Shown in pieces: positions 1-30,370 of a DNA stretch of 64,000 nt. The notes beneath the pieces are model-generated. The model saw only the letters and a program-made list of their open reading frames with translations. It did not search any database and was not told the origin of the DNA. Each line of letters opens with the position of its first letter. Position 1 is the first letter of the stretch. Source of the DNA: an uncultured Gemmatimonadales bacterium (lineage in GTDB: Bacteria; Gemmatimonadota; Gemmatimonadetes; Gemmatimonadales; GWC2-71-9); assembly GCA_963704805.1 (NCBI GenBank), contig CAVPHS010000001.1:594496-658495 (forward strand), read 5' to 3'. A program made the translations under genes and the position numbers.

Positions 1-1
1 C

Positions 2-2584: not shown

Positions 2585-2682
2585 CGCGATCAGGGACGCC
2601 CGTTCAGAATCGCTTGCCACCCTACGTCTGCTCGCAACACGTCTGCTGATCCTGACAGAAGGGTATGTGTCCTCGAGATTCA

Positions 2683-2704
2683 GATACGTGTACATACACG
2701 TATC
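2683..2704. repeat. Inverted repeat GATACGTGT-ACAT-ACACGTATC in an AT-richer intergenic spacer
   Basis: Perfect 9-bp arms with a 4-nt spacer, read directly. Lies between UPF0182 and the AlkD-like gene. Function unknown. Confidence 0.5.
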
Positions 2705-2802
2705 AGCGTTCGTGCGGCTGCAGGTGCTGGTATTAGCGGATTGACGGCGCGTGATTCCGGAGCGGGTTAGCGGGCGGGAGGTGCGGACTGTCTACGACAT
2801 CT

Positions 2803-3507
2803 GTGCGACGTGAGCTGCGCGCGGGCGCGAACCTGCGCCGGGCCGTGTTCGTGAGCCGCTTCTTCAAGACCGGTCCCGGGGAGTATGGCGCGGGGGACCG
2901 GTTCCTCGGGCTCACCGTACCGGCGGTGCGAGGGCTCGCCGCCAAATACCAGGCGCTTGCTTTGCGCGACATTACCGTCCTCCTCAAGTCGCGCTGGCAC
3001 GAGGAGCGGACGCTCGCGTTGTTTCTCCTGGTGCGGCAGTACACGAAAGGCACAGCGGAACGCCGGGCAGCAATCTACCGGCTCTATCTGCGCCATACCG
3101 CGCACATCAACAACTGGGACCTCGTCGACTGCTCGGCCCCGTACATCGTGGGACCGCACCTGGGCACCGGCAAGCGCCGTGTTTTGCGACGGCTTGCCAA
3201 GTCGAAGCTCTTATGGGAACGGCGGATCGCCATCATCGCGACACTTGCCTACATCAAGCGCGGCGACTTTGCCGAGACGCTCTACCTCGCCCGCCTGTTA
3301 CGCCACGACCCGCACGATCTGATTCACAAGGCGGTGGGCTGGATGCTGCGGGAGGTGGGGAAGCGCGATCGCGCTACGCTAGAGGGGTTCCTCGAGCGGC
3401 ATGCGCAGCGGATGCCGAGGACGATGCTGCGGTACGCGATCGAGCGTTTCCCGCCGGCCTTGCGACGACGTTATCTCTCAGCGCGCGCGGACATCGCGGG
3501 CGACTAG
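2803..3507 (+). CDS. DNA alkylation repair protein (AlkD-like HEAT-repeat family)
   Basis: 234 aa. FFKTGPGEYGAGDRFLGLTVP...WERRIAIIATL...HDLIHKAVGWMLRE matches my memory of the DNA_alkylation family. GTG start. Confidence 0.75.
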   Translation: MRRELRAGANLRRAVFVSRFFKTGPGEYGAGDRFLGLTVPAVRGLAAKYQALALRDITVLLKSRWHEERTLALFLLVRQYTKGTAERRAAIYRLYLRHTAHINNWDLVDCSAPYIVGPHLGTGKRRVLRRLAKSKLLWERRIAIIATLAYIKRGDFAETLYLARLLRHDPHDLIHKAVGWMLREVGKRDRATLEGFLERHAQRMPRTMLRYAIERFPPALRRRYLSARADIAGD

Positions 3508-3614
3508 GTAGCGGCAGTCCGTAAGCGGACAAATTCCTTGCACACGCGTTGCACGATCACCGCAGTATTGTTACGTGCGCCACGCATGCTTCGCAGCCCA
3601 AAGCAGAGGACTCC

Positions 3615-4142
3615 ATGAGCTCAATCCCGGTATGGGACGAGAGTGAATCGTGCATCGAAGCGCTGGGCGAGCGTGCCGCGGGCCCCGTCCGCATCGGCGC
3701 GCGCGCACCGGATTTCGCGCTGCCCGTGCACACGGGAGGGTGGCTGCGTCTCTGGGACATGATCGGCAGGAAGGCTGTGGTCCTCTATTTCTATCCCGGC
3801 GACGGCACGCCGGGCTGTATTCGCGAGGCGCGGGCGTTTCGCGACCGCTATGAGCAGTTTGCCGCGGCGGGCAGCGAGGTCGTCGGCGTCAGTAGCGATT
3901 CAGTAAAGTCGCACCGGCAGTTCGCCGACCGGATGCATTTGCCCTTTCCGCTCCTGTCGGATGAAGCCGGGATCGCGCGAGGTATCTACGGAGTCGAGAA
4001 GACGCTGGGCCTCATTCCTGGCCGGGCCACCTTCATCATAGACAAGACGGGGATCGTGCGGCACATCTATGTGTCGCAGTTCGCGCCCGCGCGTCACGTG
4101 GACGAGGCGCTGAACGCGCTACGCAAGCTCTTCCAACCTTAG
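3615..4142 (+). CDS. bcp: Peroxiredoxin, Bcp-type (AhpC/TSA family)
   Basis: YFYPGDGTPGCIRE peroxidatic-Cys context and LPFPLLSDE. ATG at 3615 preceded by GAGGA. The ORF extends upstream to 3549. Confidence 0.8.
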   Translation: MSSIPVWDESESCIEALGERAAGPVRIGARAPDFALPVHTGGWLRLWDMIGRKAVVLYFYPGDGTPGCIREARAFRDRYEQFAAAGSEVVGVSSDSVKSHRQFADRMHLPFPLLSDEAGIARGIYGVEKTLGLIPGRATFIIDKTGIVRHIYVSQFAPARHVDEALNALRKLFQP

Positions 4143-4177
4143 TACTCCTCCTCGCGCTCGCGCAGGGCGCAGACTCG

Positions 4178-5467
4178 GTGCCCGCCGAGCGTGTCGCCGC
4201 GCGCGAGTGGTATCGCGACGCCAAGTTCGGGATGTTCATCCATTGGGGCGTCTATAGCCTGCTCGGCCAGGGCGAGTGGGTGATGCAGAATCGGTCGATT
4301 GCCGAGGCCGATTACGAGTGGCTCGCCGGGACGTTCAATCCCCAAAAATTCGACGCGCGCGCGTGGGCCCTTCTCGCCAAGTCCGCCGGCATGAAATACA
4401 TCACGATCACGGCGCGGCATCACGACGGGTTTTCGATGTTCGCGACGCGCGCGACGCGGTACAACATCGTGGATTGGACGCCGTTCCGGCGCGATCCGCT
4501 GCGCGAGCTGGCGGAGGAGTGCCGGCGGCAGGGGATCAGGCTTTTCTTCTACTATTCGCAGCTCGATTGGCATCATGCCAATTACTTCCCCCGAGGCTCG
4601 ACCGGCCAAGGAGCCGGGAGACAGGAGTCAGGAGACTGGAGTCGGTATCTCGATTTCATGGATACACAGCTCACCGAACTGCTAACGAATTACGGATCGC
4701 TCGGCGGGATTTGGTTCGACGGGATGTGGGATAAGCCGGAGGCTGACTGGCGACTCGGGCAGACTTACGCGCTGATCCATCGGTTGCAGCCGGCGGCGCT
4801 GGTCATTCCCAATCATCACAAGGCGCCGCTCGCGGGCGAGGACGTGCAGACGTTCGAGCAGGATTTGCCGGGGGCGAACACGGCGGGGTTCAACACGCGC
4901 GAGGTGGGCGGGCTGCCGCTCGAGACGTCGCTGACGATGAATGAGTCATGGGGGTTCAATCTCACCGATCACAAGTACAAGTCGCCGCGGGAGCTGATCG
5001 GTTATCTCGTTCGCGCCGCGGGCTATGGCGCGAATCTGCTGCTCAACATCGGCCCGCGCCCCGATGGGACGATTCCGCCCGAGGCGGAGGAGCGGCTGCG
5101 GGCGATCGGCAGCTGGCTGGCGACGTATGGCGGGTCGATCTACGGCACGCGCGCGGGCCCGATCGCGCCGCGGAGCTGGGGGGTGACGACCGAGCGGCCT
5201 CACCCCCCGTCCCCCTCTCCCTCCGGGAGTCCTCACCCCCCGTCCCCCTCTCCCTCCGGGAGAGGGGGAGATACCGTTTTCGTGCATGTGCTGGACTGGA
5301 AGGATCCCACGCTTGCGTTGCCGTCACTCGGCCCAGGGCGATGGACGGCAAGGAGTTGGCCGGATGGAAAGGCTCTGGCGCTGGTGCAGACGGCGGGAGG
5401 GATGATGCTCACGTTACCGCCGGTGACGGAGCAGCCCGACAGAGTGGTCGTTCTCACGCGCCGGTAA
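4178..5467 (+). CDS. Alpha-L-fucosidase (GH29) carrying an in-frame palindromic-element insertion
   Basis: WYRDAKFGMFIHWGVYS, ITARHHDGFSMF and WFDGMW are GH29 hallmarks. The segment PHPPSPSPSGSPHPPSPSPSGRGG is encoded by repeat 5198-5270. Confidence 0.85.
   Translation: MPAERVAAREWYRDAKFGMFIHWGVYSLLGQGEWVMQNRSIAEADYEWLAGTFNPQKFDARAWALLAKSAGMKYITITARHHDGFSMFATRATRYNIVDWTPFRRDPLRELAEECRRQGIRLFFYYSQLDWHHANYFPRGSTGQGAGRQESGDWSRYLDFMDTQLTELLTNYGSLGGIWFDGMWDKPEADWRLGQTYALIHRLQPAALVIPNHHKAPLAGEDVQTFEQDLPGANTAGFNTREVGGLPLETSLTMNESWGFNLTDHKYKSPRELIGYLVRAAGYGANLLLNIGPRPDGTIPPEAEERLRAIGSWLATYGGSIYGTRAGPIAPRSWGVTTERPHPPSPSPSGSPHPPSPSPSGRGGDTVFVHVLDWKDPTLALPSLGPGRWTARSWPDGKALALVQTAGGMMLTLPPVTEQPDRVVVLTRR
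5198..5270. repeat. Family-A palindromic element (CCTCACCCCCC..CCCCCTCTCC..GGAGAGGGGG), left half tandemly duplicated
   Basis: cctcaccccccgtccccctctccctccggga occurs twice in tandem and is then closed by gagaggggg. Lies inside the fucosidase CDS, in frame. Confidence 0.85.
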
Positions 5468-5470
5468 CCG

Positions 5471-5941
5471 TTATCTGGGGTGCTCGCCCCGCAGGCGACG
5501 AATCTCCTCGAGCGCCTCGATATCCGCCGCATCTCGCAACCGACCGGTACGCTTGGTTTCGATCAAGTCATCGAGGGAGATGAGCGGAATCTTCACGCTC
5601 GTCACCGTAACAGTGTCGGAACGAGGCGCCGCTTGCTCGTACTTGATCCTCCCCGCAACCGTGAACACATCGACTCGAGGGTCATCACCGATAATGGTGA
5701 TGGGGCGGCGCAATAGCTCGACCGCCGTCCACTCGCGAGCGAAGCCATAGCCCAGCGTGCTGAGCGCCCGCAGTGTGCGGTCAGCGTTGGCTTCGGTGCG
5801 CTCGATCAAGATGTCGATGTCCTCCGTAGCGCGACCGAGGCCATGAAGGATGCAAGCAACGCCGCCGATCACCAGGTACTTGACCTTCGCCCGATTGAGC
5901 GTGGCACAGACCTGCGTTACACGCGATTGGCTTTCTTCCAC
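5471..5941 (-). CDS. Nucleotidyltransferase-fold protein (possible toxin partner of upstream RHH gene)
   Basis: KYLVIGGVACILHGLGRATEDIDILI is the G-x-motif plus DxD pattern of minimal nucleotidyltransferases. Overlaps the RHH gene by 25 nt. Confidence 0.6.
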   Translation of the reverse strand: MEESQSRVTQVCATLNRAKVKYLVIGGVACILHGLGRATEDIDILIERTEANADRTLRALSTLGYGFAREWTAVELLRRPITIIGDDPRVDVFTVAGRIKYEQAAPRSDTVTVTSVKIPLISLDDLIETKRTGRLRDAADIEALEEIRRLRGEHPR

Positions 5942-6291
5942 TCGTAGAAATCCTCATAGCTGTCGAAGCCAATGATCTGATGACGCTGACCGCGCCGCGG
6001 GCGCCGGCTGCGGGCCAAGCGCGCGACCTCTTCCGAGTGGCGCAATCGCTCCGCTGGGGATTTGGCAAGGTCTCGTTCGAGCTGCTTGCGGCTTGCAAGA
6101 CCGAAGTCGTCGGGTCCGTAGGTTGGGGTGGCCCCTTCCCGGACCGCCGAGGGGGGGGAGGCATTGGCGAGGTATGCGCGCAACGCGTCCACGATCACCC
6201 GGCTCCGAGAGCGGTCCAGGTCTCTGGCGCGCCTATCGAGGCTGGTCAGAACGTCCTTCGGGAGTGTGATAGCAATGCGAGCGTAGGCCAT
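5917..6291 (-). CDS. Ribbon-helix-helix (CopG/Arc-type) protein
   Basis: N-terminus MAYARIAITLPKDVLTSLDRRARDLDRSRSRVIVDALRAYL has a typical RHH beta-strand and helices. Confidence 0.7.
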   Translation of the reverse strand: MAYARIAITLPKDVLTSLDRRARDLDRSRSRVIVDALRAYLANASPPSAVREGATPTYGPDDFGLASRKQLERDLAKSPAERLRHSEEVARLARSRRPRRGQRHQIIGFDSYEDFYEWKKANRV

Positions 6292-6398
6292 GGCATACTC
6301 AGTATTACTGGGTATTACGAATATAAGAAGATCCAGAGCCTAGAGAAAGGGGTGGTGTCCGTGCGCCAAGAGCCTGCCCTGACGGGTTCCCGACCCGC

Positions 6399-8058: not shown

Positions 8059-8138
8059 GGGGGGAAGTTGGTCGAGATACCTTGAAGACACCACGATTAC
8101 GGCATGAGTTGGCTCTCTACGGGCGTGAGTTGGCGCGG

Positions 8139-8318
8139 CCAAAAGCAGGTCCTTCGCGCCTGCGAGAGAAGGGTTGTCTTGCCAAAAGCAGGTCCCTCGC
8201 GCCTGCGGCGCTCGGGATGACACGCGCGCTTACGCTTGTGAGGAAGAAGAAGTGTGAGAGAAGGGTTGTTTTGCCAAAAGCAGGTCCCTCGCGCCTGGCG
8301 GCGCTCGGGATGACACGC
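8139..8318. repeat. Family-B intergenic repeats (AAAGCAGGTCCYTCGC..CGCTCGGGATGAC), three tandem copies
   Basis: ccaaaagcaggtcc[c/t]tcgcgcctg occurs at ~8139, 8182 and 8272. Two copies are followed by gcgctcgggatgacacgc. Confidence 0.85.
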
Positions 8319-8365
8319 TCGCGGCCGTTATTGAATAAAAAAAGAGGATATGATGTCCTGCCCCG

Positions 8366-9024: not shown

Positions 9025-9095
9025 GCGTTTTTGCGGCACGAAGGGGCCTTTTTGCGGCAGGTCCCTCGCGCCTGCGGTGCTCTGGATGAACGCCT
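9025..9095. repeat. Family-B repeat copy
   Basis: tttgcggcaggtccctcgcgcctgcggtgctctggatgaacgc, preceded by a degenerate half copy. Confidence 0.7.
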
Positions 9096-9497: not shown

Positions 9498-9606
9498 GAA
9501 CAGCAGGTCCGTCGCTGCGCGCGCGTTCCGCGCGCTTCGCTCAGGATGACAGGTCGCGGTGTCTTCCAAAGCAGGTCCCTCGCGCCTGCGGCGCTCGGGA
9601 TGACAG
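9498..9606. repeat. Family-B repeats, two copies
   Basis: cagcaggtccgtcgc..cgctcaggatgacagg and caaagcaggtccctcgcgcctgcggcgctcgggatgacagg. Confidence 0.8.
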
Positions 9607-9649
9607 GCTTCGCGGCGGTTTCTTGAATAAAGAGAAAGACGGGGGTCCC

Positions 9650-10195: not shown

Positions 10196-10279
10196 GCACC
10201 GTGGCACGCGTTAGGCACACGCTCCCGAGCGTCGGGAGAAGTTCAACACACGACACGGATCCCGACGCCGTGTCATCAT

Positions 10280-10312
10280 CCCCTGACCCCCTCTCCGCAA
10301 GCGGAGAGGGGG
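10280..10312. repeat. Family-A palindromic element
   Basis: cccctgaccccctctccgcaagcggagaggggg, 22 nt upstream of the ATG at 10334. Confidence 0.85.
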
Positions 10313-10333
10313 AACGATGGGAGGGAGGTTTGT

Positions 10334-11020
10334 ATGAATGCCGTGGTACGCAGGCGGCTGGAAATGGCCGCGCGGGTCCGAGATTTCCTCCGGACCCACA
10401 AGACGGACGGAGTTGGTGAGGGGCTGGGACTCGCCAAGCTCGAGGAGCTCATCACGCGGGCGGAGGCGCTCGCGTCTCAGCAGCGGGGTGGTCAGGTCGC
10501 GACGCGGGCGGCGACGATGCAGCGCGCCGACATTCGCGAGCTGCTCAAGACCAAGCTACTCCGGTATCTGGTGGCGGTGGGCGCGGTGGCGGCGCGCGGG
10601 AATGTGGAGTTGTCGGCCCATTTCCGTCTGCCGCGCAAGTCCAGCCATCAGGCGTTCTTGACGGCTGCGCGTGGGATGCTGGACAAGGCGACCGCGCAGA
10701 AGGACGTCCTGGTGGGCGAAGGGATGTCGGCGACGTTGCTCGACGACCTCACCGCCAAGCTCGCAGAGTTCGAGAAGACGTTGGAGGCTTCGCGGGCGGG
10801 GCGGCGCGAGCATGTCGAGGCGAGCGCCGATCTCGAAGCCGTTGCCGCCGAGATCGCCGAGCGAGTACGGATGCTCGACGGGCTGGTGCGGTATCGGTTT
10901 GGGGACAACCCGGCGCTGATGGAAGGCTGGGCGAGCGCCCGGGATGTGCTGGGGCCGTTCCGGTCGAAGGCACCGCAGGAGCCAGAGGCCGGCGGTAGTG
11001 AGACGCCCAAGGCTGCATGA
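10334..11020 (+). CDS. Hypothetical all-alpha protein ('gene X'); its 3' end is repeated twice downstream
   Basis: ATG at 10334 (MNAVVRRRLEMAARVRDFL...). No family recognised. The ORF-track start at 10001 runs through a repeat and looks non-coding. Confidence 0.6.
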   Translation: MNAVVRRRLEMAARVRDFLRTHKTDGVGEGLGLAKLEELITRAEALASQQRGGQVATRAATMQRADIRELLKTKLLRYLVAVGAVAARGNVELSAHFRLPRKSSHQAFLTAARGMLDKATAQKDVLVGEGMSATLLDDLTAKLAEFEKTLEASRAGRREHVEASADLEAVAAEIAERVRMLDGLVRYRFGDNPALMEGWASARDVLGPFRSKAPQEPEAGGSETPKAA

Positions 11021-11032
11021 CGGCGGCTTAGG

Positions 11033-11072
11033 GGCGCGGCAGACTGATCACCTGCCGCGCCTTTGTCTTCTC
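11033..11072 (+). terminator. Intrinsic terminator of gene X
   Basis: 10-bp stem ggcgcggcag/ctgccgcgcc with a 9-nt loop, followed by tttgtcttctc. Confidence 0.6.
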
Positions 11073-11076
11073 AGAA

Positions 11077-12117
11077 CTAGTCCAAGACCGCGATTGTAAC
11101 ACCCACACTGCGGAACGAATCCATCGCTGCGAGCTCGGGGCCGACCTGCGACAGGGTGATCGTCTTTCCTAACAGTTTCTCAGGATGCAGGTGTCCCTTG
11201 GTTATCAAATCCAGCATCCCCACGTATTCCCTCGCCTGCAGCCCGTGCGTCCCTCTGATTTCGAGCTCCCGCGCGATCACCTGACTCATCGGCACGGGAG
11301 GATCGCTCTCACGGCCGAGGAGCAGTCCGACCTGGATGTGCCGTCCCCGCTTCCTGAGAGAAAGGATGGAATTGCGGCAGGTGGCGGGACTGCCGAGCGC
11401 ATCGATCGAGACATGGGCGCCGCCTCCCGTCACCTCCCGGATCGCGCCCGGCACATCCGCCACCTTCTGCGCGTCGATGACGATTTCGGCACCAGCACAC
11501 CGAGCCAGCTCGAGTTTCTCCGCGGTGATGTCGACGGCGATCACGCGTGCATCGAGAGCCCGCGCGATCATGGTGGTCGAGAGGCCAACGCCACCGCAGC
11601 CGTGCACGGCCACCCATTCGCCGGGCCGGGTTTGGCCCTGTCCGACGACGGCGCGGTACGCGGTCGCGAAACGGCACCCGAGCAATGCGGCGGTCGTGAA
11701 GGCCATGGCATCGGGGAGCCGCACCAGGTTCAGGTCGGCATAGGGGAGGGCGACGTACTCCGCGAAGCTGCCCCAGCCCGTGAAGCCCGGCTGGTAGTAG
11801 CGATCGCAGATCTGCTCGTCGCCCGCGCGGCAACGCTCGCACGAGCCGCATCCCATCGAGAAGGGGACGGTAATGCGGTCGCCCTGCTTCCATTTGCGTA
11901 CGGCGTTGCCCGTTGCGACCACCGTGCCGGCGAACTCGTGTCCAGGGACGTGTGGCACTTTGACGTCGGCGTCGTGGCCCTTCCATCCGTGCCAGTCGGA
12001 GCGGCAGAGTCCCGAGGCGCCGACTCTTATAACGACGCCGTCGGGGGTCGGCGTGGGATCGGGTACGTCGACTAGGCGAAGCGGGCCTTCGAATTGATCG
12101 TAGCGAACCGCTTTCAT
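11077..12117 (-). CDS. Zinc-binding alcohol dehydrogenase (MDR family)
   Basis: GLCRSDWHGWKG, GHEFAGTVVATG, the structural-Zn Cys cluster GCGSCERC and VHGCGGVGLS. Confidence 0.85.
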   Translation of the reverse strand: MKAVRYDQFEGPLRLVDVPDPTPTPDGVVIRVGASGLCRSDWHGWKGHDADVKVPHVPGHEFAGTVVATGNAVRKWKQGDRITVPFSMGCGSCERCRAGDEQICDRYYQPGFTGWGSFAEYVALPYADLNLVRLPDAMAFTTAALLGCRFATAYRAVVGQGQTRPGEWVAVHGCGGVGLSTTMIARALDARVIAVDITAEKLELARCAGAEIVIDAQKVADVPGAIREVTGGGAHVSIDALGSPATCRNSILSLRKRGRHIQVGLLLGRESDPPVPMSQVIARELEIRGTHGLQAREYVGMLDLITKGHLHPEKLLGKTITLSQVGPELAAMDSFRSVGVTIAVLD

Positions 12118-12205
12118 GTCGGGTGAATCTTACGTAAAAGCAGATCCCGCGCCGCACTTCCGCAGCCCTCATGGGTTCGCTCTATTCCACCGGCAATTCG
12201 CTCCA

Positions 12206-13921
12206 ATGGCCGTGGATTCCCCAGTGAACGCTATGTCTCTTCCTTCTGCCCAAGCGGAGCTTGAGCAATGGCGCGCGGTTCGCGCTGTCGTTCTCGCTCG
12301 CGACTCGCACATTTGCAGGGCTTGCGGCGAAACATGCTCTCAGGGCGAAGCCGACGTTCATCATCTGATTCCCCGTGCCGCCGGTGGGGTCGATGACCCC
12401 GCCAACCTGATCACACTGTGCGATGGCTGTCATGCTGCGCACCATCCGAACCTTCAAGGTACGCTTGCTCGCCGGATGATAGAGCGCTGGGGATTGAGGC
12501 TGGCTAGGGCACTGGATTTCCGGCACGAGTTGGCTGGCGTTGATGAATCGCTCGGCGCGGCGATGCGGCTGCTTGGAGTTACCCATCTCCGCACTCCCCA
12601 GCTAGACGTGATTCTCGCGGCCCTCCGAGGCGAGTCACTCCTTCTCGTCAGCGCGACCGGCTCTGGAAAGTCGCTCTGTTTTCAGGTGCCAATCCTGTTA
12701 ACGCGCGGGTGCGGGTTCGTGATTTCACCGTTGAAGGCGCTCATGAGCCAGCAGGTGGCCGACCTTACGATGAGAAAGGTCCCGGGCACCTTCATCAACG
12801 GTGACCTTGGCCCGCACGAAAAGGAGATCCGGTACCAACTGCTAAGGGATGGCGCAATCAAGTTCCTGTATTGCACGCCGGAGCGCTTCGATCCGAGAAT
12901 GGTTCGCCAGGCTGAAGTGGACGAGATCACTGGTACCCGGCCGGCCTACTTGGTGATCGACGAAGCGCATTGCATCGATCGTTGGGGAAATGACTTCCGC
13001 CCGAACTACGGCAAGTTGGGTGCAATTCGCCAGGCGCTTGGCAGCCCGCCGGTGTTGGCGTTCACCGCCACGGCCGGAACGCAGGGCCAGCGCCGCATTC
13101 TCGAATCGCTCGGCATACCAAACGCTCGCGTAGTGGTGACCGGGGTGAACCGACCGAACATCAAGTTCGTCCGTCTGCCGAACATGAAGGACAAGGTGCG
13201 GTTTTCCCTGATCATGAACCTCCTCAGGGTCATGCCGCATGGTCGTGCCATGTTGTTCGTGCCCACGGTCAACACCGGAAAGCAGCTCCAGGAGGGCCTT
13301 CGCTCGGTGGGATTAGACCTTCCCTTCTTCCACTCCAAACTCGGTACGGCTAACGACCGCGACATGCTGCTGGGCCAGTTCACGGGCCGCGTCGACCCGC
13401 CCGTGAGAGTCGTCATCTGTACCAATGCTTTCGGCATGGGACTCGATTTGCCCGACGTTCGACTCGTGGTTCACTGGCAGCATCCCGCGTCACCGGAAGA
13501 CTACCTTCAGGAATTCGGACGCGCTGGTCGGGATGGCAAGCCTTCGGTCGCTGTCATGTTCACAGCAGAGAGCGACGAAGGATTGCTCAGGTTCATGGCG
13601 GAGAAGACATCCGAGATGGCAGTCGACGACGCGTCCAAGGCCTCGGTGCTCGAAGCCAAGCTCGAAGCAATCAAGGAAATGCGGCGCATTGCGACGTCGA
13701 GAGGCGTCTGCGTTCGCAACAATATCGTCCAGTACTTTGGGGAAATGCCTTCGCCTCGGCGTAGAAGCATCGCCGTACGAATTGCGGAATGGGTGCTCTC
13801 ACGGTCCGTCCGTCTCCGACGAACCCGATTCTGCTGTGACCGGTGCGATCAGGTGAATGTCGACGATGTCGACGACGTCATCGCTTGGGCCGTCGGGGTT
13901 TTTGCACAGGAGGGTAGGTAG
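12206..13921 (+). CDS. HNH endonuclease domain fused to RecQ-family DEAH helicase
   Basis: HNH: CRACGE..DVHHLIPRAAGG..NLITLCDGCHAAHH. Helicase: SATGSGKSLCFQ, VIDEAHCIDRWGNDFRPNY, FTATA, RQLQEFGRAGRDG-like and a Zn-binding CCDRCD tail. Start uncertain (12116, 12206 or 12233). Confidence 0.75.
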   Translation: MAVDSPVNAMSLPSAQAELEQWRAVRAVVLARDSHICRACGETCSQGEADVHHLIPRAAGGVDDPANLITLCDGCHAAHHPNLQGTLARRMIERWGLRLARALDFRHELAGVDESLGAAMRLLGVTHLRTPQLDVILAALRGESLLLVSATGSGKSLCFQVPILLTRGCGFVISPLKALMSQQVADLTMRKVPGTFINGDLGPHEKEIRYQLLRDGAIKFLYCTPERFDPRMVRQAEVDEITGTRPAYLVIDEAHCIDRWGNDFRPNYGKLGAIRQALGSPPVLAFTATAGTQGQRRILESLGIPNARVVVTGVNRPNIKFVRLPNMKDKVRFSLIMNLLRVMPHGRAMLFVPTVNTGKQLQEGLRSVGLDLPFFHSKLGTANDRDMLLGQFTGRVDPPVRVVICTNAFGMGLDLPDVRLVVHWQHPASPEDYLQEFGRAGRDGKPSVAVMFTAESDEGLLRFMAEKTSEMAVDDASKASVLEAKLEAIKEMRRIATSRGVCVRNNIVQYFGEMPSPRRRSIAVRIAEWVLSRSVRLRRTRFCCDRCDQVNVDDVDDVIAWAVGVFAQEGR

Positions 13922-13938
13922 GATTAGGAGCTAACACG

Positions 13939-14245
13939 TTGGAGGCTTCACGGGCGGGGCGGCGCGAGCATGTGGAGGCGAGCGCCGATCTCGAGGCCGT
14001 GGCCGCCGAGATCGCCGAACGCGTCAGGAGCTCGACGGGCTGGTGCGGTATCGGTTAGGGGACAACGCGGCGCTGATGGAAGGCTGGTCGAGCGCTCGGG
14101 ATCCTTTGCTGCGCTCAGGACGAGTTGTGTTGGGACCGTTCCGGTCGAAGGCAGCGCAGGAGCCCGAGGCCGGCGGTAGTGAGACGCCGAAGGCTGCATG
14201 ACGGCGGCTTAGGGGCGCGGCAGACTGATCACCTGCCGTGCCATT
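13939..14245 (+). pseudogene. Degenerate duplicate of the 3' end plus terminator of gene X
   Basis: Aligns by eye to 10781-11065, from ttggaggcttc[g/a]cgggcggggcggcgcgagcatgt to ggctgcatgacggcggcttaggggcgcggcagactgatcacctgccg. It has indels and a ~30-nt insert. Confidence 0.8.
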
Positions 14246-14577: not shown

Positions 14578-16332
14578 TCAGTCCTCCGGAGGACAATTTT
14601 CGGCACCCAAGACCTTTAGCAGAGAATCCTGGTCCATCGCATGGCGTGCCTCAATGATCGAGATGAGAGAATCCAGCGACCGCCGGTTGCTGGGTGATGA
14701 CTGGCGTTTCGATTTCAGGACCGCAAGACTGTCCAGGTCAGCCTGGGCTCGGCGCTGGGCAGCCTGGACAGCCGAAGACGCTTTTGTGCAGGGTCCCTGT
14801 GGGAGAGATAAGCACCCCGTCGGCTGGCCGTGTTCAGGTGCCAGGACATTATCGAGTCGGACGTGGGGGCGCTCTGCGGACACGAGGAATTCTTCCTTGC
14901 GCGCACCAATGGTCACCGTCACGCTGGTCGCACGCAGGTAGTTTCCCTGGACTGCAGTTTCAGGTCCGCATTTCTTTCCCATCTTAGAGAGTGCCACTCG
15001 AATGGACGAACTGTCACCGAATTCGATTCGTGCGGGAACCGCAGCCATTCTCAGGGAATCTGTCGACAGAACCCAGACAAATACTAGTCGCGGTGGATGA
15101 TCAGGTAGCGATGCGATGACAGCGGGAAGCAAGTTTTCCGTGACGATCCCCCTCGGGACGTGGACGCCGCTCCGGTCTAGATCGCCCTCGCCCGTCAGAG
15201 AATACTGTCCGCTGTCGATCAGTGCCTGAGCAGAATACCCCGCCACTTCACGAGAATAACTCGTGCGCTGAACGTAGCTGTGAATGGTGGACATACCACG
15301 ATCGACTTCGGTCCGCCACTCGTCAGTGTACTGGTCTTTGTTCCCCTCATTCCACGTCGATGAGACGTAGCGCTCGAGAATTGCAGTCCCCTCGGGAGAA
15401 AGAGTCTTCGAGTAAACGGTCCTCGTACTTATAGTTCGTATATGGTTGTTGTCCTTCTCAAAGAACGTCACTCCATCAAGGACATCGGGATCGATCCGCA
15501 ACGAATCGTTCACGCTCGCCTTTGCCAGAGACGGGTCAGGCGGCGCTTCGCGGTGAACCGAAGACCCAAAGGTCACACGAACAGCTTCGGAAAGAGGCAC
15601 CGCGTCCTGCGAAGCAATCGTCCCTAGCTGAGCGCGAACGTAGTTGATTGGAAGCGCGAAGTTCAGGTTTTGCGCCCCTGGTTCTGCCCATGTCCCGAGG
15701 ACGAGCCCGATCGCATGACCCCCCTCATCGAGTATGGGTCCACCGCTACTCCCGGGCGACGTAGGAGCCGAAATCTGAAAGAGCCTGTGATCCCCCTGGT
15801 TCCTCACACCGCTGAGTAGCCCATCACTGACCGTTGCCTCAAACCCCTCTGGTGCCCCAACAACGTAGATCCGCTGTCCCACCGAAGTACTATCCGAATT
15901 GCCAAGGGTGATCGTAGGGAGATCGACTCCCTCCATTTTGATGATGGCATAATCGAACCGGTGATCCACGCGATAGACTCCGGTAACTACCCGCGTGTCC
16001 CCGTCTGGCAGGCGAACGGAAGCTGAAGAGGCGCCGTCGATGACGTGAGCGGCCGTGACTAACAACCCGTTGGGAGAGATAACGAAGCCGCTCCCAGTAA
16101 AACCGCCACTCGCCTTCTTAACCGCGATGAATGCTGTTGCCCTCCTCGCCGCGTCGATGGTTCGAGCGCCCGCGGGATGCTGCGCATGAAGCGCGGAGGA
16201 GAACGACCCCAGGACAAGAAGGAGGCCGATATCTCTCGGACTTAGTTTTGTGGCCAAGAATGAAGAACTCCGTGCGTACGGTGCCCCCTTACGGGATGCG
16301 CCTAAGGTGCGGCGCCAGGCTTTCATGTTCAC
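14578..16332 (-). CDS. Secreted trypsin-like serine protease (S1C-like) with ~330-aa unknown C-terminal region
   Basis: GSGFVISPNGLLVTAAHV (His), DYAIIKM (Asp), GSSGGPILD (Ser), and an N-terminal signal/TM. Confidence 0.75.
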   Translation of the reverse strand: MNMKAWRRTLGASRKGAPYARSSSFLATKLSPRDIGLLLVLGSFSSALHAQHPAGARTIDAARRATAFIAVKKASGGFTGSGFVISPNGLLVTAAHVIDGASSASVRLPDGDTRVVTGVYRVDHRFDYAIIKMEGVDLPTITLGNSDSTSVGQRIYVVGAPEGFEATVSDGLLSGVRNQGDHRLFQISAPTSPGSSGGPILDEGGHAIGLVLGTWAEPGAQNLNFALPINYVRAQLGTIASQDAVPLSEAVRVTFGSSVHREAPPDPSLAKASVNDSLRIDPDVLDGVTFFEKDNNHIRTISTRTVYSKTLSPEGTAILERYVSSTWNEGNKDQYTDEWRTEVDRGMSTIHSYVQRTSYSREVAGYSAQALIDSGQYSLTGEGDLDRSGVHVPRGIVTENLLPAVIASLPDHPPRLVFVWVLSTDSLRMAAVPARIEFGDSSSIRVALSKMGKKCGPETAVQGNYLRATSVTVTIGARKEEFLVSAERPHVRLDNVLAPEHGQPTGCLSLPQGPCTKASSAVQAAQRRAQADLDSLAVLKSKRQSSPSNRRSLDSLISIIEARHAMDQDSLLKVLGAENCPPED

Positions 16333-17766: not shown

Positions 17767-17794
17767 GGTTAGTGTTAGGTCTTGTGGAGATCGC

Positions 17795-17953
17795 CGAGCA
17801 GCTGCGGCTGCTCGGAGGGGCCTGTGCGGTGTCGGGTTCGGGATAGCGTCGACCTGATGGAGGCGTGGGCCAGCGCGCGGAATGTGCTGCGGCCGTTGAA
17901 GCCGAAGGGGCGGCTCGAAGACAGGTGGTGGTGAAAGGCCGAAGGCGGCGTGA
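17795..17953 (+). pseudogene. Third, more diverged 3' fragment of a gene-X homologue
   Basis: EIAEQLRLL..VDLMEAWASARNVLRPLKPKG parallels EIAERVRMLDGLVRYRFGDNPALMEGWASARDVLGPFRSKA of gene X. Confidence 0.6.
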
Positions 17954-19148: not shown

Positions 19149-19505
19149 ATGAAACTTGCCATGATCGTGGGCACGCTGTGTTTGAGCCTTGTCTCGATTT
19201 CGGGAATGGCCTGGTCCCCTCATCCAGGCGTGGCATCCTGTGATGCCTCCGACTTGAGTGAGATCGTTGGTTACACTGCCGTTACATCGACCAATGTGGT
19301 TGGCGAATTCGAAGGAGCGGACTACGATAAGCCGGTGAAGCTTGACAACGGAATGATCTTCGAGTTCACAGAATACAACTATTCGTACAGCTATCGCCCT
19401 GATGTTATTATCTTCGCTCGGTCCGCAACCATCCAAGACCGTCAAGTCAATTTGTACAAGCTATTGATCGCGGATGAACTCTACGATGTTATTCGCGTGC
19501 GATAG
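19149..19505 (+). CDS. Hypothetical secreted protein
   Basis: MKLAMIVGTLCLSLVSISG signal-like N-terminus. Lower-GC codon usage. No family recognised. Confidence 0.5.
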   Translation: MKLAMIVGTLCLSLVSISGMAWSPHPGVASCDASDLSEIVGYTAVTSTNVVGEFEGADYDKPVKLDNGMIFEFTEYNYSYSYRPDVIIFARSATIQDRQVNLYKLLIADELYDVIRVR

Positions 19506-19937
19506 CCAGTGACGGGGTCGCCAATTCGAGTAGTTCGAAGTGAGTCCGCCCAATCGAGAACGCAGAATTTCGTCGTGAGTTCACCGACCGCATGATGGGA
19601 TACCTCTTTAACCCCGCAACGACGTGAGAGGGAAGACCAGTCGAGTTCGTTGCTAGCTTCCCACCCGCACCCTGAATGCCTTTTGATAACCGTTTCGAAT
19701 CATAGATGACCGATCGTCGTTCAATCGGCGAATGACGGACTCCAAGTCCTGATGAACCTGGCTAATGCACGAATTCGCGTAGTCAGGATCGGCGACGTGA
19801 AAGGGCTGGACCAGGAATGGGCCAGTCGATGGCTGAATCTGGCCGCGACATGACTGGTCGAGCTCAGGTAGGTAAACGGACGTCTGGATTGTCGACCTGC
19901 AGTTGACACAGTCTGAAACGACTGTAATTCATATCGT

Positions 19938-20300
19938 GTGGCTATTCCTCGGTGGGTCAAGTCTCTCGTCGTCTACCTATCCGGGGGTACCCTTGCCATC
20001 GGGTCGGTCTCATCTGTCGCGGTCGCGCAAAACCCGAAACCAAAGCCACCCGTCGAAAAAGATTCGACAAGAATCCTCATTGATTCCGGGTACACGCGTT
20101 TGGGAGAGAAGTTTCTCCTCACCCGTGCCGACTCTCTCGTGGTTCGTGCAAATGGTGACACCGCGCACTTTAAGCGGAGCCACCCGACGACGGGCCACGC
20201 GTCGCACGCGTCGCACGCGTCTCACGCCTCACATGCCTCACACGCCTCGCACTCATCGCACTCCTCACACTCGTCCCATTCCTCGGGCGGCTGGATCTGA
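19938..20300 (+). CDS. hxsA: His-Xaa-Ser repeat precursor protein (HxsA-like)
   Basis: 120 aa, GTG start, signal-like N-terminus. C-terminus is GHASHASHASHASHASHASHSSHSSHSSHSSGGWI: 6x HAS plus 4x HSS. Confidence 0.8.
   Translation: MAIPRWVKSLVVYLSGGTLAIGSVSSVAVAQNPKPKPPVEKDSTRILIDSGYTRLGEKFLLTRADSLVVRANGDTAHFKRSHPTTGHASHASHASHASHASHASHSSHSSHSSHSSGGWI
20196..20285 (+). repeat. Ten tandem 9-nt His-Xaa-Ser coding repeats
   Basis: cacgcgtcg-type units read directly. Codon choice varies between units, so conservation is at the peptide level. Confidence 0.9.
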
Positions 20301-20307
20301 CCTGCCG

Positions 20308-20652
20308 GTGAGTACCAACGATGGGGCTCCAGCTTTCGAAACAGTCGAGAGGACGGACGATTTCGTTCTACTGCGGGTCGATACTAAGCTGTATGCTCGC
20401 GAGTCCCTCTTCCGCGCGTGCTACCAGTTCACCGATCGTTGTTACTTGTTTCTGCGCTCTGATGGCGACAACGCGATCGTCGTCGAGATTCGTCGTAGAC
20501 CCGCGTCCGCGCCGCTCGGCGAACTGCTTGGTGACTTCGGCAACGAGCTCCTGAATCAACAAGTCCGGACCGACATTGCGCGAGAAACCCGCGCGATTCG
20601 GGAGATGATCGTTGCCCAGGCGTTCCGAGAGTCCGATTTGCATGCGGGGTAG
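20308..20652 (+). CDS. hxsD: HxsD-like small protein
   Basis: In-frame GTG at 20308. FVLLRVDTKLYARESLFRACYQFTDRCYLFL...GNELLNQQVRTDIARETRAIREMIVAQAF resembles the LLNDYxLRE-motif family named HxsD in TIGRFAMs (from memory). Confidence 0.65.
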   Translation: MSTNDGAPAFETVERTDDFVLLRVDTKLYARESLFRACYQFTDRCYLFLRSDGDNAIVVEIRRRPASAPLGELLGDFGNELLNQQVRTDIARETRAIREMIVAQAFRESDLHAG

Positions 20653-20872
20653 GAGCGTGGTGCTGTCTCATACGATCTACCCGCGATCGGCATTGGAATC
20701 GGCGCGGTCAGCCTTTGCGGGGCTGTGTGACATCGATGTACGGAGTGACGGAGCGGATGTGCGTGTAACGATATCGGCCCGGGATGGCGCGCCCCTTGAA
20801 GCGGTTGATGAGTTCCTGTCATACGTGCTCTCGGCGGCGATTGAGTCTCACCTCGCCAGCTCGACTCAATGA
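20642..20872 (+). CDS. Second HxsD-like small protein (diverged paralogue)
   Basis: VVLSHTIYPRSALESARSAFAGLCDIDVRSDGADVRVTI..AVDEFLSYVLSAAIE parallels the N-terminal two-thirds of 20308..20652. Its start overlaps the previous stop, and its stop overlaps the next ATG (ATGA). Confidence 0.5.
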   Translation: MRGRSVVLSHTIYPRSALESARSAFAGLCDIDVRSDGADVRVTISARDGAPLEAVDEFLSYVLSAAIESHLASSTQ

Positions 20873-22365
20873 CGAAGGTGGTCTTTCATCCTCCCGCTCG
20901 CTATGCCGGGCCTGGGGACTATGAGCTTTTGCCATTTCGCTTCATTGATCTGGACGATCGCAAGGTCGTCGTCAACGAAGTCGGCGAGTACGAACTGCTC
21001 GACCAGAACGCGTTCCAGCAGTTCGTAAGACACTCGCTCTCTCCGACCTCGGACACCTATCGCAACCTCAAGGCCAAGCATTTCCTCCGGGACCCAGAGT
21101 CGTTGGTCCCGCTTAGACTTCTGTCCACCAAATACAGGACCAAGCGCGCGTTTCTAGAGGGGTTTACTAGGCTCCACATCTTCGTCGTCACGCTGCGGTG
21201 CGATCACTCCTGTCACTATTGCCAGGTGTCGCGCGTCAGCATGAACCGCTCAAAGTACGACATGTCACCAGAGTCCGCGCGAGCGGCGCTCGATTGGGTG
21301 TTTCGCTCCCCCTCCCGATATCTCAAGATCGAATTCCAAGGCGGCGAGCCGCTGCTCAATATCGAGCTCATCAGAGACATTACAGAGGAGGCGAAGCGGC
21401 GGGCCGTGGCCTCGGAGAAAGAGGTTGAGTTCGTCGTGGCAACGAACCTTTCCTTCCTGAGCGACGACATTCTGGCGTTCCTGAAGGCGCATAACATCGG
21501 CATCTCGACATCCCTCGATGGGCCCGCATTCATCCACAACGTCAACCGCCCTCGGCCTGGTAATGACGCTCACGAAACGACGGTGCGCGGCATAGCCCGG
21601 GCGCGAGCAGCCCTCGGACGGGGTGCTGTTTCAGCCTTGATGACAACGACACGGCTGAGTCTTGAGCATCCCGAGGCGATCGTGGATGAATACATCAAGC
21701 AAGGTTTTGACCGAATCTTCCTGCGCCCCATCAGTCCGTATGGGTTTGCGGTGCGGACGCAGCAGAAGACCGGCTATGACGTGCAGGCCTTCCTGGAGTT
21801 CTACAAACGCGCGTTAGATCGAGTGATTGCGATCAATCGGAGCGGCAAATGGATGGTCGAGATCTACGCGCGCATTTTGCTGACAAAAATCCTGACTCCC
21901 TTCGCTACAGGCTATGTCGACCTGCAATCGCCGGCTGGCGCTGGAGTTAGCGTTGCGGTCTACAGCTACGATGGCGACGTCTATGCAACGGACGAATCGC
22001 GGATGCTCGCCGAGATGGGCGACCGCACCTTTCGTTTAGGCAACGTTCATTCGAACAGTTATGAAGAGGTGTTCGGCGGTCCACTGCTGAGGTCCCTCGT
22101 CGCGGCCTCCTGTGTCGAGTCCCTTCCCGGTTGCTCAGACTGTGCATTCCAAACCTTTTGCGGCGCGGATCCCGTGGAAAACTACGCCACCCAGGGGGAT
22201 GTCTTCGGCCATCGACCGACGAGTCGCTTCTGTGCTCGGAATATGGAGATCATCAGGCATCTACTCCGTCTATACCACAGCGGAGATGCGTTCATTCAAC
22301 AGTTGTTTTGGAGCTGGGTCGAAAACGTGCCGGTGGATTCCCTTACGGAACGCTTACCAAACTAA
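20869..22365 (+). CDS. hxsB: Radical SAM/SPASM maturase (HxsB-like)
   Basis: CDHSCHYCQ (CxxxCxxC) and GGEPLL. C-terminal Cys-rich SPASM-like region CVESLPGCSDCAFQTFCGADP. Confidence 0.8.
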   Translation: MTKVVFHPPARYAGPGDYELLPFRFIDLDDRKVVVNEVGEYELLDQNAFQQFVRHSLSPTSDTYRNLKAKHFLRDPESLVPLRLLSTKYRTKRAFLEGFTRLHIFVVTLRCDHSCHYCQVSRVSMNRSKYDMSPESARAALDWVFRSPSRYLKIEFQGGEPLLNIELIRDITEEAKRRAVASEKEVEFVVATNLSFLSDDILAFLKAHNIGISTSLDGPAFIHNVNRPRPGNDAHETTVRGIARARAALGRGAVSALMTTTRLSLEHPEAIVDEYIKQGFDRIFLRPISPYGFAVRTQQKTGYDVQAFLEFYKRALDRVIAINRSGKWMVEIYARILLTKILTPFATGYVDLQSPAGAGVSVAVYSYDGDVYATDESRMLAEMGDRTFRLGNVHSNSYEEVFGGPLLRSLVAASCVESLPGCSDCAFQTFCGADPVENYATQGDVFGHRPTSRFCARNMEIIRHLLRLYHSGDAFIQQLFWSWVENVPVDSLTERLPN

Positions 22366-24912: not shown

Positions 24913-26211
24913 TCACCTGCCTAATACTGAAAGAATTGCGCTAGCCCGATACGCGTCTGGCGTGGTGATGAATAGAGCGGAACCTGAACCGTCCTTAGTC
25001 AGCGCAAGCAGATTACGATCATAATCGAGCTGAACATGGAGCAACTTCTTTAGGGGAATGGACGTCGTCCCATCATGGATCAGCAGGAGTCGTTTGTCGG
25101 TGATGAGCAAGGCCCCTTCCTTCTCAATTACCGGGGCGCGGACCTTGTATCGCTGACCGGCGCTCTGAAAGGACCGCACCGTTTTGATTTTTAGCAGCCG
25201 CGCGTCGCCTTCGTAATAACAGACCTCACCCTCGGGAAGCGAGACACTTGGCTTAATCGGTTCAAGGGCTCCGCTGAGAATAGACCTTATCTGTTTGAGA
25301 TGCACGACGAATCCAAGCTCCGGAAGAACTGCGTGCTCGTCGATCTCCAGTTCTTCTCTGATGTGTCGTAGCGCGTCCTCCTCTTCCTCGGTGAGTTCAT
25401 GATCAGCGACGCATTCTAGGTAAACTCTTCGAAAAACATTCAAGTGCGATTCGTGCAAGAACTCTTCCGTCAAGCTGCACAATTGGCTTATCTGACGAAG
25501 GAGGGTTTTTTCTTCATCGGAAACCCGACCGTCCGTCACGATCGTTTCGAGGGCATTCAGGTAAGAGGTCTTCCCATAGTATTCCCGATCGGAGTCTGTG
25601 ACGCGCGGATCGCTAATTGCAGATCGGAGCTCAGCCATCTCTGTCGGGGACAGTTCTCTGGTGGTTGAGAATCTCTCAGCGAGCCGCGTGCCGAGTGCTG
25701 CACCTCGACGATTCTTCCTCCAGGCATGAATCATTGGGGCAGGCCAGAGGGAGAGCAGAGCGGCGAGTACCACAGTTGCGATTGTGCGAACTTGGGGACT
25801 AAGAAGGGCTTGATTGCGCAGTATTGCACCGCCAATCACGGCGAGAGTTGGCAAAAGAAGATAAACGGCTATGCTAAGTGTCTTTCGCCGCAGTGTTGAT
25901 TCCAGAGTGGGGAGGGATGAGGACGGGATACTCGCGAGAGGGTAAGTGACATTGGCATCCCCGCTAATCGTAAACGGATCCTCCGGTTCTGATACACCAG
26001 CCTCCGATAGTCTATTGGCACTCGGATTTGAAGCACTGCCGAGCGATTGTCGGAAATACAGACCACCACGCCCCGCGTGCACGTAACCACGCCCGGTCGA
26101 CGTAATACCAATACGCGCTCCGGGAACACCAACGGACAGTCCCAGTCCGCTCTTGGAGAGATTCAGACGCAGAGGTCCTGCACTGAAACTCTTGCGAAGG
26201 TAGAAGCCCAC
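24913..26211 (-). CDS. DUF4236-domain membrane protein with TerB-like motifs and C-terminal bacterial PH-like domain
   Basis: N-terminus MGFYLRKSFSAGPLRLNLSKSGLGLSVGVPGARIG (DUF4236). Two TM helices. DGRVSDEEKTLLRQI and ELTEEEEDALRHI motifs. Tail LLITDKRLLLIHDG. Domain calls other than DUF4236 are tentative. Confidence 0.6.
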   Translation of the reverse strand: MGFYLRKSFSAGPLRLNLSKSGLGLSVGVPGARIGITSTGRGYVHAGRGGLYFRQSLGSASNPSANRLSEAGVSEPEDPFTISGDANVTYPLASIPSSSLPTLESTLRRKTLSIAVYLLLPTLAVIGGAILRNQALLSPQVRTIATVVLAALLSLWPAPMIHAWRKNRRGAALGTRLAERFSTTRELSPTEMAELRSAISDPRVTDSDREYYGKTSYLNALETIVTDGRVSDEEKTLLRQISQLCSLTEEFLHESHLNVFRRVYLECVADHELTEEEEDALRHIREELEIDEHAVLPELGFVVHLKQIRSILSGALEPIKPSVSLPEGEVCYYEGDARLLKIKTVRSFQSAGQRYKVRAPVIEKEGALLITDKRLLLIHDGTTSIPLKKLLHVQLDYDRNLLALTKDGSGSALFITTPDAYRASAILSVLGR

Positions 26212-30319: not shown

Positions 30320-30370
30320 CCCCCTCTCCGGGAACGGAGAGGGGGTCAGGGGGTGAGGACGGGGGTGAGG
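30320..30370. repeat. Family-A palindromic element with double GGGGGTGAGG tail
   Basis: ccccctctccgggaacggagagggggtcagggggtgaggacgggggtgagg. In frame, encoding PPLRERRGGQGVRTGVR. Confidence 0.85.

Follow-up and report, generated by a model that had tools for sequence, protein, structure and literature searches.

Is an HNH nuclease joined to a RecQ-like helicase a caretaker of its own genome, or part of the defence against foreign DNA? The question is raised by a stretch of 64,000 nucleotides (hereafter the window) from an uncultured Gemmatimonadales bacterium (GenBank assembly GCA_963704805.1, contig CAVPHS010000001.1, positions 594,496 to 658,495 of the forward strand). An original prediction, made from the letters alone, placed an HNH nuclease fused to a RecQ-type helicase at positions 12206-13921 and proposed an anti-phage or anti-plasmid function. 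The fusion is a single polypeptide, and its family is accessory and horizontally mobile rather than the housekeeping RecQ. We tentatively favour, as quite possible, the reading that the protein works on its own as an accessory nuclease-helicase, most probably in conflicts with the foreign DNA of phages or plasmids.

Reading frame, domains and predicted fold

The open reading frame (ORF) runs uninterrupted over 12116..13921 on the forward strand (601 aa), and position 12206 is Met31 of this frame. Because the relatives are 559-575 aa long and the upstream alignment converges on an ATG at 12233 (Met40 of the 601-aa ORF, invariant in the upstream DNA of six loci), we predict a 562-aa product that starts at 12233 and ends with the TAG at 13919-13921. 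The stop of the original prediction thus holds and its start moves 27 nt downstream. A start at 12116 is unlikely, since it overlaps the start codon of a divergent ADH-like gene (11077-12117, minus strand). The conserved block of the leader stops at the invariant ATG. Nucleotide homology begins at 12177 against loci L003 and L091, which have unrelated flanks, and at 12217 against L001. No sigma-70-like consensus was found in the leader, and the scan for sigma-70 promoters and terminators was uninformative. An exact-sequence look-up of the window protein returned no database record. The features of the gene are as follows, with residues numbered on the 562-aa product.

12177..12232, forward strand: 55-nt leader, a putative promoter or 5' untranslated region that moves with the gene (nucleotide homology to relatives)
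12233..13921, forward strand: coding sequence (CDS) of the HNH-RecQ-like nuclease-helicase, predicted 562 aa (ORF; start from relatives and upstream alignment; dN/dS 0.17-0.22)
12314..12445, forward strand: HNH (beta-beta-alpha-metal) nuclease domain, residues 28-71 (PF01844; residues invariant in 51 sequences)
12458..12577, forward strand: conserved helical linker, residues 76-115 (LQGTLARRxIERWGLRLARxLD...; many invariant columns)
12596..13078, forward strand: RecA-like domain 1, DEAD/DEAH (PF00270; aligns to BLM, RECQL5 and E. coli RecQ)
13202..13537, forward strand: RecA-like domain 2, Helicase_C, with motif VI QEFGRAGRDG (PF00271; invariant columns)
13568..13918, forward strand: putative C-terminal helical Zn-type subdomain (C493 ... 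C534-C535-D-R-C538) and terminal helix (Cys invariance; AlphaFold2 model)

The original prediction had read the N-terminus as a classic HNH motif and the remainder as a RecQ-like DEAH helicase with a Zn-binding region and no obvious HRDC domain, and a Pfam domain search bears out the HNH, the helicase and the missing HRDC. HNH (PF01844, 38.9 bits against a cutoff of 21.4, E 9e-10), DEAD (PF00270, 81.8 bits) and Helicase_C (PF00271, 66.2 bits) are found, RecQ_Zn_bind (PF16124) falls just under its cutoff of 25 with 21.8 bits, and neither HRDC nor RQC matches the window protein at E <= 0.1. The NCBIfam recQ_fam subfamily model TIGR00614 is passed with 279.9 bits (cutoff 219.8). All residues of the quoted HNH motif are present (C28xxC31, D41-V-H43-H44, N58, C63-D-G-C66-H67 and H71), and the active site is predicted to be complete and of the McrA/Cas9 type. 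RecA-like domain 1 carries motif I (SATGSGKS, residues 140-147) and, from residue 243, motif II DEAH followed by C..WG.DFRP; DEAHC..WG.DFRP is the RecQ aromatic-rich loop and aligns to that of BLM and E. coli RecQ. We aligned first 20 and then 51 family members (49-93% identical to the window protein); in these alignments the HNH residues, TGSGKS, the aromatic-rich loop, QEFGRAGRDG and the four cysteines (C493, C534, C535 and C538) are all invariant. No Pfam family matched the linker (residues 76-115). In the L091 orthologue, Walker A (region L091:8118-8297) reads GFGKS instead of GSGKS, which is either a sequencing error in a long-read metagenome-assembled genome (MAG) or an inactivating substitution.

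The four cysteines mark a putative Zn-type helical subdomain. The chain ends 24 residues past the C493...C534-C535-x-x-C538 cluster, and therefore there is no room for winged-helix (WH) or HRDC domains. A shallow alignment gave a poor AlphaFold2 (AF2) model (pLDDT 65), whereas the model from 51 sequences reached pLDDT 81.5 and pTM 0.78; it places linker helices at residues 78-93 and 107-113 and only helices in residues 446-561. Foldseek searches of the PDB recovered RecQ-family cores only (BLM, RECQL5 and bacterial RecQ), with D. radiodurans RecQ (4Q48) at 3.2 A and E. coli RecQ (1OYW) at 4.0 A over ~405 columns. Profile scores against PDB sequences were 257 bits for BLM, 229 bits for RECQL5 and 228 bits for E. 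coli RecQ, and the alignments to RecQ, BLM and RECQL5 stop near residue 507, within the Zn subdomain. For the HNH domain alone, the closest solved domains are those of a group II intron maturase, E. coli McrA (6GHC) and IscB/Cas9. The whole HNH and RecQ combination is covered by no solved PDB structure and no BFVD viral model in Foldseek searches. The motor is thus modelled as a RECQL5-like 'minimal RecQ', composed of two RecA domains and a Zn-type helical subdomain, with no WH or HRDC.

HNH and helicase lie in the same frame in 24/24 loci from species-representative genomes and in at least 26 loci overall, which disposes of the possibility that the HNH part belongs to a separate upstream ORF and upholds the predicted fusion in one polypeptide. 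Relatives of 478-517 aa that seem to be HNH-less were considered as evidence of a split gene and rejected, as the HNH is present in frame upstream in L091, L110 and L114. The gene of L091 (a Gemmatimonadota MAG) can be read in one frame from residue 1 to 560, with 84% identity. The annotated ATG of S. meliloti (L110) and R. etli CIAT 652 (L114), which is the Met of 'PRSMGG', is preceded by HNH coding sequence in the same frame. The HNH-less database entries are systematic miscalls of the start codon, as in the following annotations.

L110:9881-11554: annotation from an internal Met that omits the HNH
L114:9881-11551: annotation from an internal Met that omits the HNH
L091:7758-9437: annotation from an internal Met that omits the HNH

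Selection keeps both parts of the protein. By the Nei-Gojobori method, comparison with six relatives gives a dN/dS of 0.17-0.22 for the whole protein and of 0.07-0.16 for its HNH domain; the low ratio of the HNH means that the nuclease is selectively maintained and is not a decaying add-on. The nuclease and motor halves are both under purifying selection. The family is already present in sequence databases (as 'RecQ family helicase') and in PADLOC (as a 'DpdF' sub-model), though uncharacterised, and a correction of the database entries, from which a wrong start codon often removes the HNH, would be worthwhile.

Distribution and mobility of the family

The window protein misses the models of canonical RecQ by a wide margin, with 278.2 bits against a cutoff of 640.2 for the equivalog TIGR01389 and 234.6 bits against 1015 for PRK11057. 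Its family was found at 24 loci across Gemmatimonadota, Alpha-, Beta- and Deltaproteobacteria and Actinomycetota, with identities of 40-98%. Identity is 65-98% in Gemmatimonadota, 71% in a Deltaproteobacteria MAG, 65% in Phycisphaerae, 50-53% in rhizobia (Ensifer, Rhizobium, Bradyrhizobium, Mesorhizobium and Pararhizobium), ~50% in Solirubrobacterales and Acidimicrobiales, and 44% in Rhodobacterales. In an exhaustive library clustered at 50% identity the fusion occurs in only ~45-55 clusters, against 8149 RecQ-like clusters at E <= 1e-30. Relatives of 74-98% identity occupy unrelated, non-syntenic loci. The S. meliloti chromosome CP090106.1 has an annotated recQ and no family member at E <= 1e-100, and other S. 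meliloti strains carry a member, so presence varies between strains. No second RecQ lies within the 64-kb window. The original claim that this is not the housekeeping RecQ is therefore borne out by the failed equivalog, the sporadic spread across phyla, the strain-variable presence in S. meliloti and a synteny breakpoint in a segment of lower GC. Orthologues are present in cultured strains of S. meliloti, R. leguminosarum, Mesorhizobium and R. etli CIAT 652, and through those in rhizobia the family is experimentally tractable. Four alphaproteobacterial members of ~715-720 aa (P0371, P0377, P0385 and P0389) carry a peptidoglycan-binding domain (PF01471) C-terminal to the HNH-RecQ, which is odd for a DNA enzyme.

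The limits of the shared DNA are sharp. Nucleotide homology to L001, L003, L091 and L006, all in unrelated contexts, is confined to 12177/12217-13924, that is, the CDS with at most 55 nt of leader, and ends at most 3 nt from the stop. The nearest genome, a Gemmatimonadales MAG (L021, 98% amino acid identity), is collinear with the window over 1-6360 and then jumps to 11079-13917; the latter block holds the ADH-like gene and the helicase, and homology is lost at the helicase stop codon. All-against-all clustering of the neighbours at the 24 loci gave no conserved partner gene. An HNH_2 protein of ~300 aa was considered as a partner and rejected, because it recurs only in L026, L091 and L114. 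The gene thus appears to travel as a sharply bounded one-gene cassette with no conserved partner. Its GC3 is 0.69, against 0.77-0.90 in the core genes of window positions 1-7.3 kb, and that of the ADH-like gene is 0.79. The segment of lower GC (0.55-0.60) extends to ~28 kb.

Copies on phages and plasmids are rare. Among 2.9 million IMG/VR contigs, one phage lineage carries the fusion, represented by two contigs.

L092:1-11257: phage copy, UViG_3300027503_000771
L093:1-10514: phage copy, UViG_3300024354_000660

The overlap of the two contigs is 100% identical, so that they represent the same phage in two metagenomes. This is a genuine tailed phage, whose copy has intact motifs and 54-58% identity. 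The gene order is SNF2-type helicase, Cas4-like exonuclease, primase-polymerase, RuvC-like resolvase, HNH-RecQ, ParB-methyltransferase, HNH and TerL. The fusion was found in 0 of 50,697 GenBank phages. Plasmids hold the family in 2 of 72,556 records, one of them a fragment, and on this count a plasmid-borne lifestyle was rejected. One copy was found on a Mesorhizobium plasmid that is mobilizable, with IS66 and Tn3 around it. The HNH-helicase gene of this plasmid adjoins HxsB/HxsC radical-SAM maturases. Plasmid matches in Cereibacter and Thiothrix, which begin at residue 42, were set aside because they belong to a different protein of 1706 aa.

Known systems and possible functions

Genes of restriction and defence lie beside some of the relatives. 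Clear neighbours of this kind were found in ~6 of the 24 loci, a tally (~24 loci) made without a formal background control: ResIII with an N6_N4 methylase, NYN and an RNase_H_2-SF1 helicase (L001); type I HsdR/HsdS, PLD-helicase-DUF3427, DndB and GIY-YIG (L006); HsdR, TIR_2 and ThsB_TIR of Thoeris type (L007); McrB and McrC directly upstream (L018); a type IIG methylase and a Mu-type transposase (L019); and, in R. etli CIAT 652 (L114), a Hhe-like DUF4011-SF1-MTES_1575 protein, a C5 methylase and the HNH_2 protein. In both L001 and L021, the HNH-helicase gene converges with a downstream neighbour that encodes an RNase_H_2-SF1 helicase of 1126 aa. A pooled PADLOC scan of 124 neighbours from 21 loci recovered REase_I, mREase_IV, type II and type IIG components, MkoA, PbeA, HEC-09 and PDC-S54. 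The association with defence islands is real but partial.

PADLOC names the protein itself 'DpdF'. Model PDLC02859 matches with 600 bits, from residue 59 to 580 of the 601-aa ORF on positions 2-527 of a 545-position profile. This full-length match means that PADLOC already catalogues the HNH-RecQ architecture. The helicase core is also matched by several other DpdF sub-models. With NF041063, the curated equivalog for DpdF, only this core aligned, and the score was 158.4 bits against a cutoff of 550. We identified no TGT-like, DndB/ParB-like or preQ0-pathway neighbours in the window, and no Dpd partners among the top-25 families of the 124 neighbours from 21 loci. Dpd is a ~20-kb multi-gene cluster; DpdA-C carry out the DNA modification and DpdD-K the restriction, and the role of each single protein is not known (PMC10164549). 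The likeness to DpdF comprises the RecQ-like/DEAD helicase core and one full-length PADLOC sub-model; canonical DpdF, in contrast, has ~813 aa and resides in a dpd cluster, which the window gene lacks. Because NF041063 is missed widely and no dpd genes surround the window gene or its relatives, membership of a Dpd cluster was rejected, and 'DpdF' is a homology label and not a functional assignment.

Other known proteins share parts of the architecture. Bacterial RecQ (1OYW, 4Q48) has the same superfamily 2 (SF2) core, with motif 0, TGxGKS, DEAH-C..WG.DFRP and Q-E-x-GRAGRDG, and a tetra-Cys subdomain after RecA2. The window protein differs from it in the added N-terminal HNH and linker, in the lack of winged-helix/RQC and HRDC, and in a Zn subdomain with an insertion of ~25 residues and CCDxC spacing; moreover, bacterial recQ is a core gene, whereas the present family is accessory and horizontally mobile. 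The RECQL5 core (5LB8), among the top matches in both sequence and fold, likewise lacks a WH and is built of two RecA domains, a Zn subdomain and a helix after it, but RECQL5 is eukaryotic, has no nuclease and binds RNA polymerase II through a long C-terminal region. WRN, too, carries its nuclease ahead of a RecQ-family motor in the same polypeptide. Unlike the window protein, it has a DnaQ-fold exonuclease instead of an HNH, retains RQC and HRDC, and is a eukaryotic repair protein. One relative comes closer to WRN: P0173 (L117:1255-3954, 899 aa) is a WRN-like triple fusion in which a DnaQ/RNase_H_2-type 3'-5' exonuclease precedes the HNH and the RecQ-like helicase. The contigs of P0154 and P0173 are too short for neighbourhood information.

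Among defence proteins, Cas3 combines an N-terminal metal-dependent nuclease with a 3'->5' SF2 helicase, and reels in and cuts single-stranded DNA. The window protein shares the fusion of an N-terminal nuclease to an SF2 helicase and has weak PADLOC matches to Cas3-like models; the nuclease of Cas3, however, is of the HD type, its motor belongs to another SF2 clade, and Cascade recruits it to an R-loop, whereas no recruiter is evident for the window protein. PsyrT/RqlH, the next named defence relative after DpdF, is an accessory, defence-associated RecQ-like helicase, and the PsyrT model matches with 220 bits in the helicase core only. It has no HNH and is accompanied by an adjacent antitoxin (PsyrA/RqlI), whereas no neighbour family is common to the 24 loci of the present family, so that the conserved antitoxin gene of the PsyrTA/RqlHI toxin-antitoxin systems is missing. 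HmaA, Hna and Nhi join an SF1 or SF2 motor and a nuclease in one polypeptide and are found in defence hotspots; they differ in using other motor clades (Snf2, SF1) and PD-(D/E)xK nucleases, and in having been tested experimentally. Such proteins are the nearest analogues that have been tested: a single helicase-nuclease protein, HmaA, confers defence, and its nuclease (nickase) activity is required (PMC11232893).

By analogy with these enzymes, an anti-phage or anti-plasmid mechanism can be outlined. The motor may load on 3' single-stranded tails, forks or D-loops, as other RecQ-family enzymes do; such structures would be abundant in the replication or entry intermediates of phages and plasmids. 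ATP-driven translocation would proceed 3'->5', and the HNH, which would be attached to the N-terminal RecA domain at the exit of the tracked strand, could nick or cut the DNA being reeled through. The outcome would be a processive, ATP-coupled degradation of the target, which would follow the logic of Cas3 and of HmaA, Hna and Nhi. As there is no conserved methylase, antitoxin or sensor partner, discrimination of self from non-self would need DNA structure, expression control or host factors. We regard as possible, though doubtful, a stronger form in which this one protein is by itself a complete and hitherto unrecognised immune effector, a 'Cas3 without Cascade', whose minimal RecQ motor senses phage or plasmid intermediates by DNA structure alone and feeds the tethered HNH, and which spreads as a 1.75-kb promoter-plus-gene cassette among phyla, plasmids and phages.

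Several observations weigh against a role in defence, besides the lack of a background control for the tally of neighbours. About half of the loci have ordinary flanks, such as an aminoacyl-tRNA synthetase and SecDF (L003), AcrB (L012), PBP5 (L022) and Ser/Thr kinases (L009 and L013). The R. etli copy counted above for its defence neighbours is also ~3 kb from the repair genes Ku, Ku, ImuB and DnaE2. A PADLOC model scan recognised no defence system among the neighbours in the window. The position in the phage genome, between a replication/recombination module and the terminase, would also fit a role in DNA metabolism or between mobile genetic elements. Where the HNH lies with respect to the path of the DNA is an inference, and an unregulated nuclease-helicase without an immunity partner raises a problem of self-toxicity. 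A literature search found no paper that describes or tests an HNH-RecQ fusion and no experimental data on any member. The anti-phage or anti-plasmid function that was originally proposed is thus borne out in part: the ~6 of 24 loci in defence islands and the PDLC02859 match favour it circumstantially, and the weak neighbours in the window, the lack of Dpd partners and the phage copy speak against it.

The main rival is an accessory enzyme of DNA repair or replication restart, a second RecQ paralogue whose HNH would incise stalled forks, D-loops or recombination intermediates in a WRN- or ZRANB3-like manner. ZRANB3 is an SF2 translocase with an HNH and acts as a structure-specific endonuclease. 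We consider this role unlikely. In its favour, the motifs specific to RecQ, the aromatic-rich loop among them, are preserved, the core and bacterial RecQ can be superposed at 3-4 A, P0173 has a WRN-like architecture, the flanks are unrelated to defence at many loci, the R. etli copy is close to repair genes, and the Ensifer aridi copy adjoins an SbcCD-like pair (AAA_27 and Metallophos). However, the sporadic, strain-variable spread across phyla and the mobility as a one-gene cassette are unusual for repair genes, and the protein lacks WH and HRDC, which mediate contacts with substrate and SSB in canonical RecQ. Moreover, a LexA/SOS box (GTTC-N7-GTTC or GAAC-N7-GAAC) was present in 0 of 10 upstream regions of alphaproteobacterial orthologues, and SOS regulation was rejected on this basis. 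Still less probable, in our view, is a gene for the DNA metabolism or counter-defence of mobile elements (degradation of host DNA, processing of replication or recombination intermediates, or superinfection exclusion), with the chromosomal copies as remnants or cargo. The motif-intact copy in the tailed phage, the Mesorhizobium plasmid copy among insertion elements and the transposases that flank L011, L014, L019 and L112 agree with such an origin, but a single phage lineage in IMG/VR, none in GenBank phages and two plasmid records do not, and the window and most loci have no prophage or integrase context. Carriage by phages, which is frequent among genuine defence genes too, thus discriminates weakly.

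Two further explanations have less to recommend them. A relative of DpdF that is orphaned or stands alone, as a Dpd subunit dependent on the DpdA-C modification and the other DpdD-K proteins, is improbable: PDLC02859 and the sub-models that match the core speak for it, but the score for NF041063 is far below its cutoff, the gene has neither Dpd neighbours nor any conserved neighbour, and Dpd is defined as a multi-gene cluster of ~20 kb (PMC10164549). That an ordinary housekeeping RecQ of the lineage has gained an HNH is largely refuted and, in our judgement, very improbable. NCBI and JGI annotate the protein as 'RecQ family ATP-dependent DNA helicase' and it passes the recQ_fam cutoff; against this, it fails the recQ equivalog and PRK11057, lacks WH and HRDC, has close relatives (74-98% identical) at non-syntenic loci, shows identities of 50-71% across phyla that indicate horizontal transfer, and is strain-variable in S. 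meliloti, where a separate recQ exists.

If a role in conflicts with foreign DNA is the true one, a compact 1.7-kb single-gene nuclease-helicase would join the anti-phage repertoire, and the RecQ fold, normally a genome caretaker, would have been turned into a weapon by gain of an HNH and loss of WH and HRDC. If the protein is a repair enzyme instead, it would be a bacterial analogue of nuclease-coupled RecQ/SF2 fork processors such as WRN and ZRANB3.

Surroundings of the gene in the window

The original prediction had also placed the gene between two copies of a repeated gene, gene X. Repeats do flank the helicase, but only one copy of gene X is intact (10331-11020, 229 aa, with the ADH-like gene between it and the helicase); the other is a frameshifted 3' remnant (13933-14201), and there is a faint third trace at ~17787-17953.

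10775..11064, forward strand: left direct repeat, the 3' end of intact gene X plus 44 nt (repeat families, 91-95% identity; blastn, tblastn)
13933..14245, forward strand: right repeat, the frameshifted 3' remnant of gene X, 86-95% identical, which begins 12 nt past the helicase stop

The block shared with L021 (11079-13917) is exactly the segment between these repeats. The gene X protein is probably helical. It has no Pfam or PADLOC match and does not lie alongside the helicase at any other locus of the family. No tRNA was found in the window.

PADLOC matches among the neighbours in the window are weak and at the level of domains only (protease, MBL, radical-SAM and WYL domains). Directly downstream of the helicase, 14578-16332 (minus strand) encodes a 584-aa trypsin-like serine protease with a domain that weakly resembles PADLOC 'RT-Protease_XI' and LmuA (57 bits). 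At 20869-22365 (plus strand) lies a gene for a 498-aa radical-SAM protein (PF04055 and Fer4_12), preceded by several small ORFs at 19149-20872; the arrangement points to a possible peptide-maturase-like locus. The far end of the lower-GC segment (24913-26211 and 26634-27281 on the minus strand, 29693-31213 on the plus strand) encodes a DUF4236 protein (weak sub-threshold TerB and weak PDC-S48 matches), a short GGDEF protein and a 506-aa WYL-domain protein.

Short intergenic repeats that resemble repetitive extragenic palindromes or miniature inverted-repeat transposable elements (REP/MITE), for instance GCAGGTCCCTCGCGCCTGCGGCGCTCGGGATGA (four copies), occur in the variable segment upstream of the helicase, at 8118-8341, 9057-9089 and 9544-9631. 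Another element of ~45 nt is scattered in the window, as seen from 10272-10322 compared with 30310-30360, 30725-30761 and 49304-49347.

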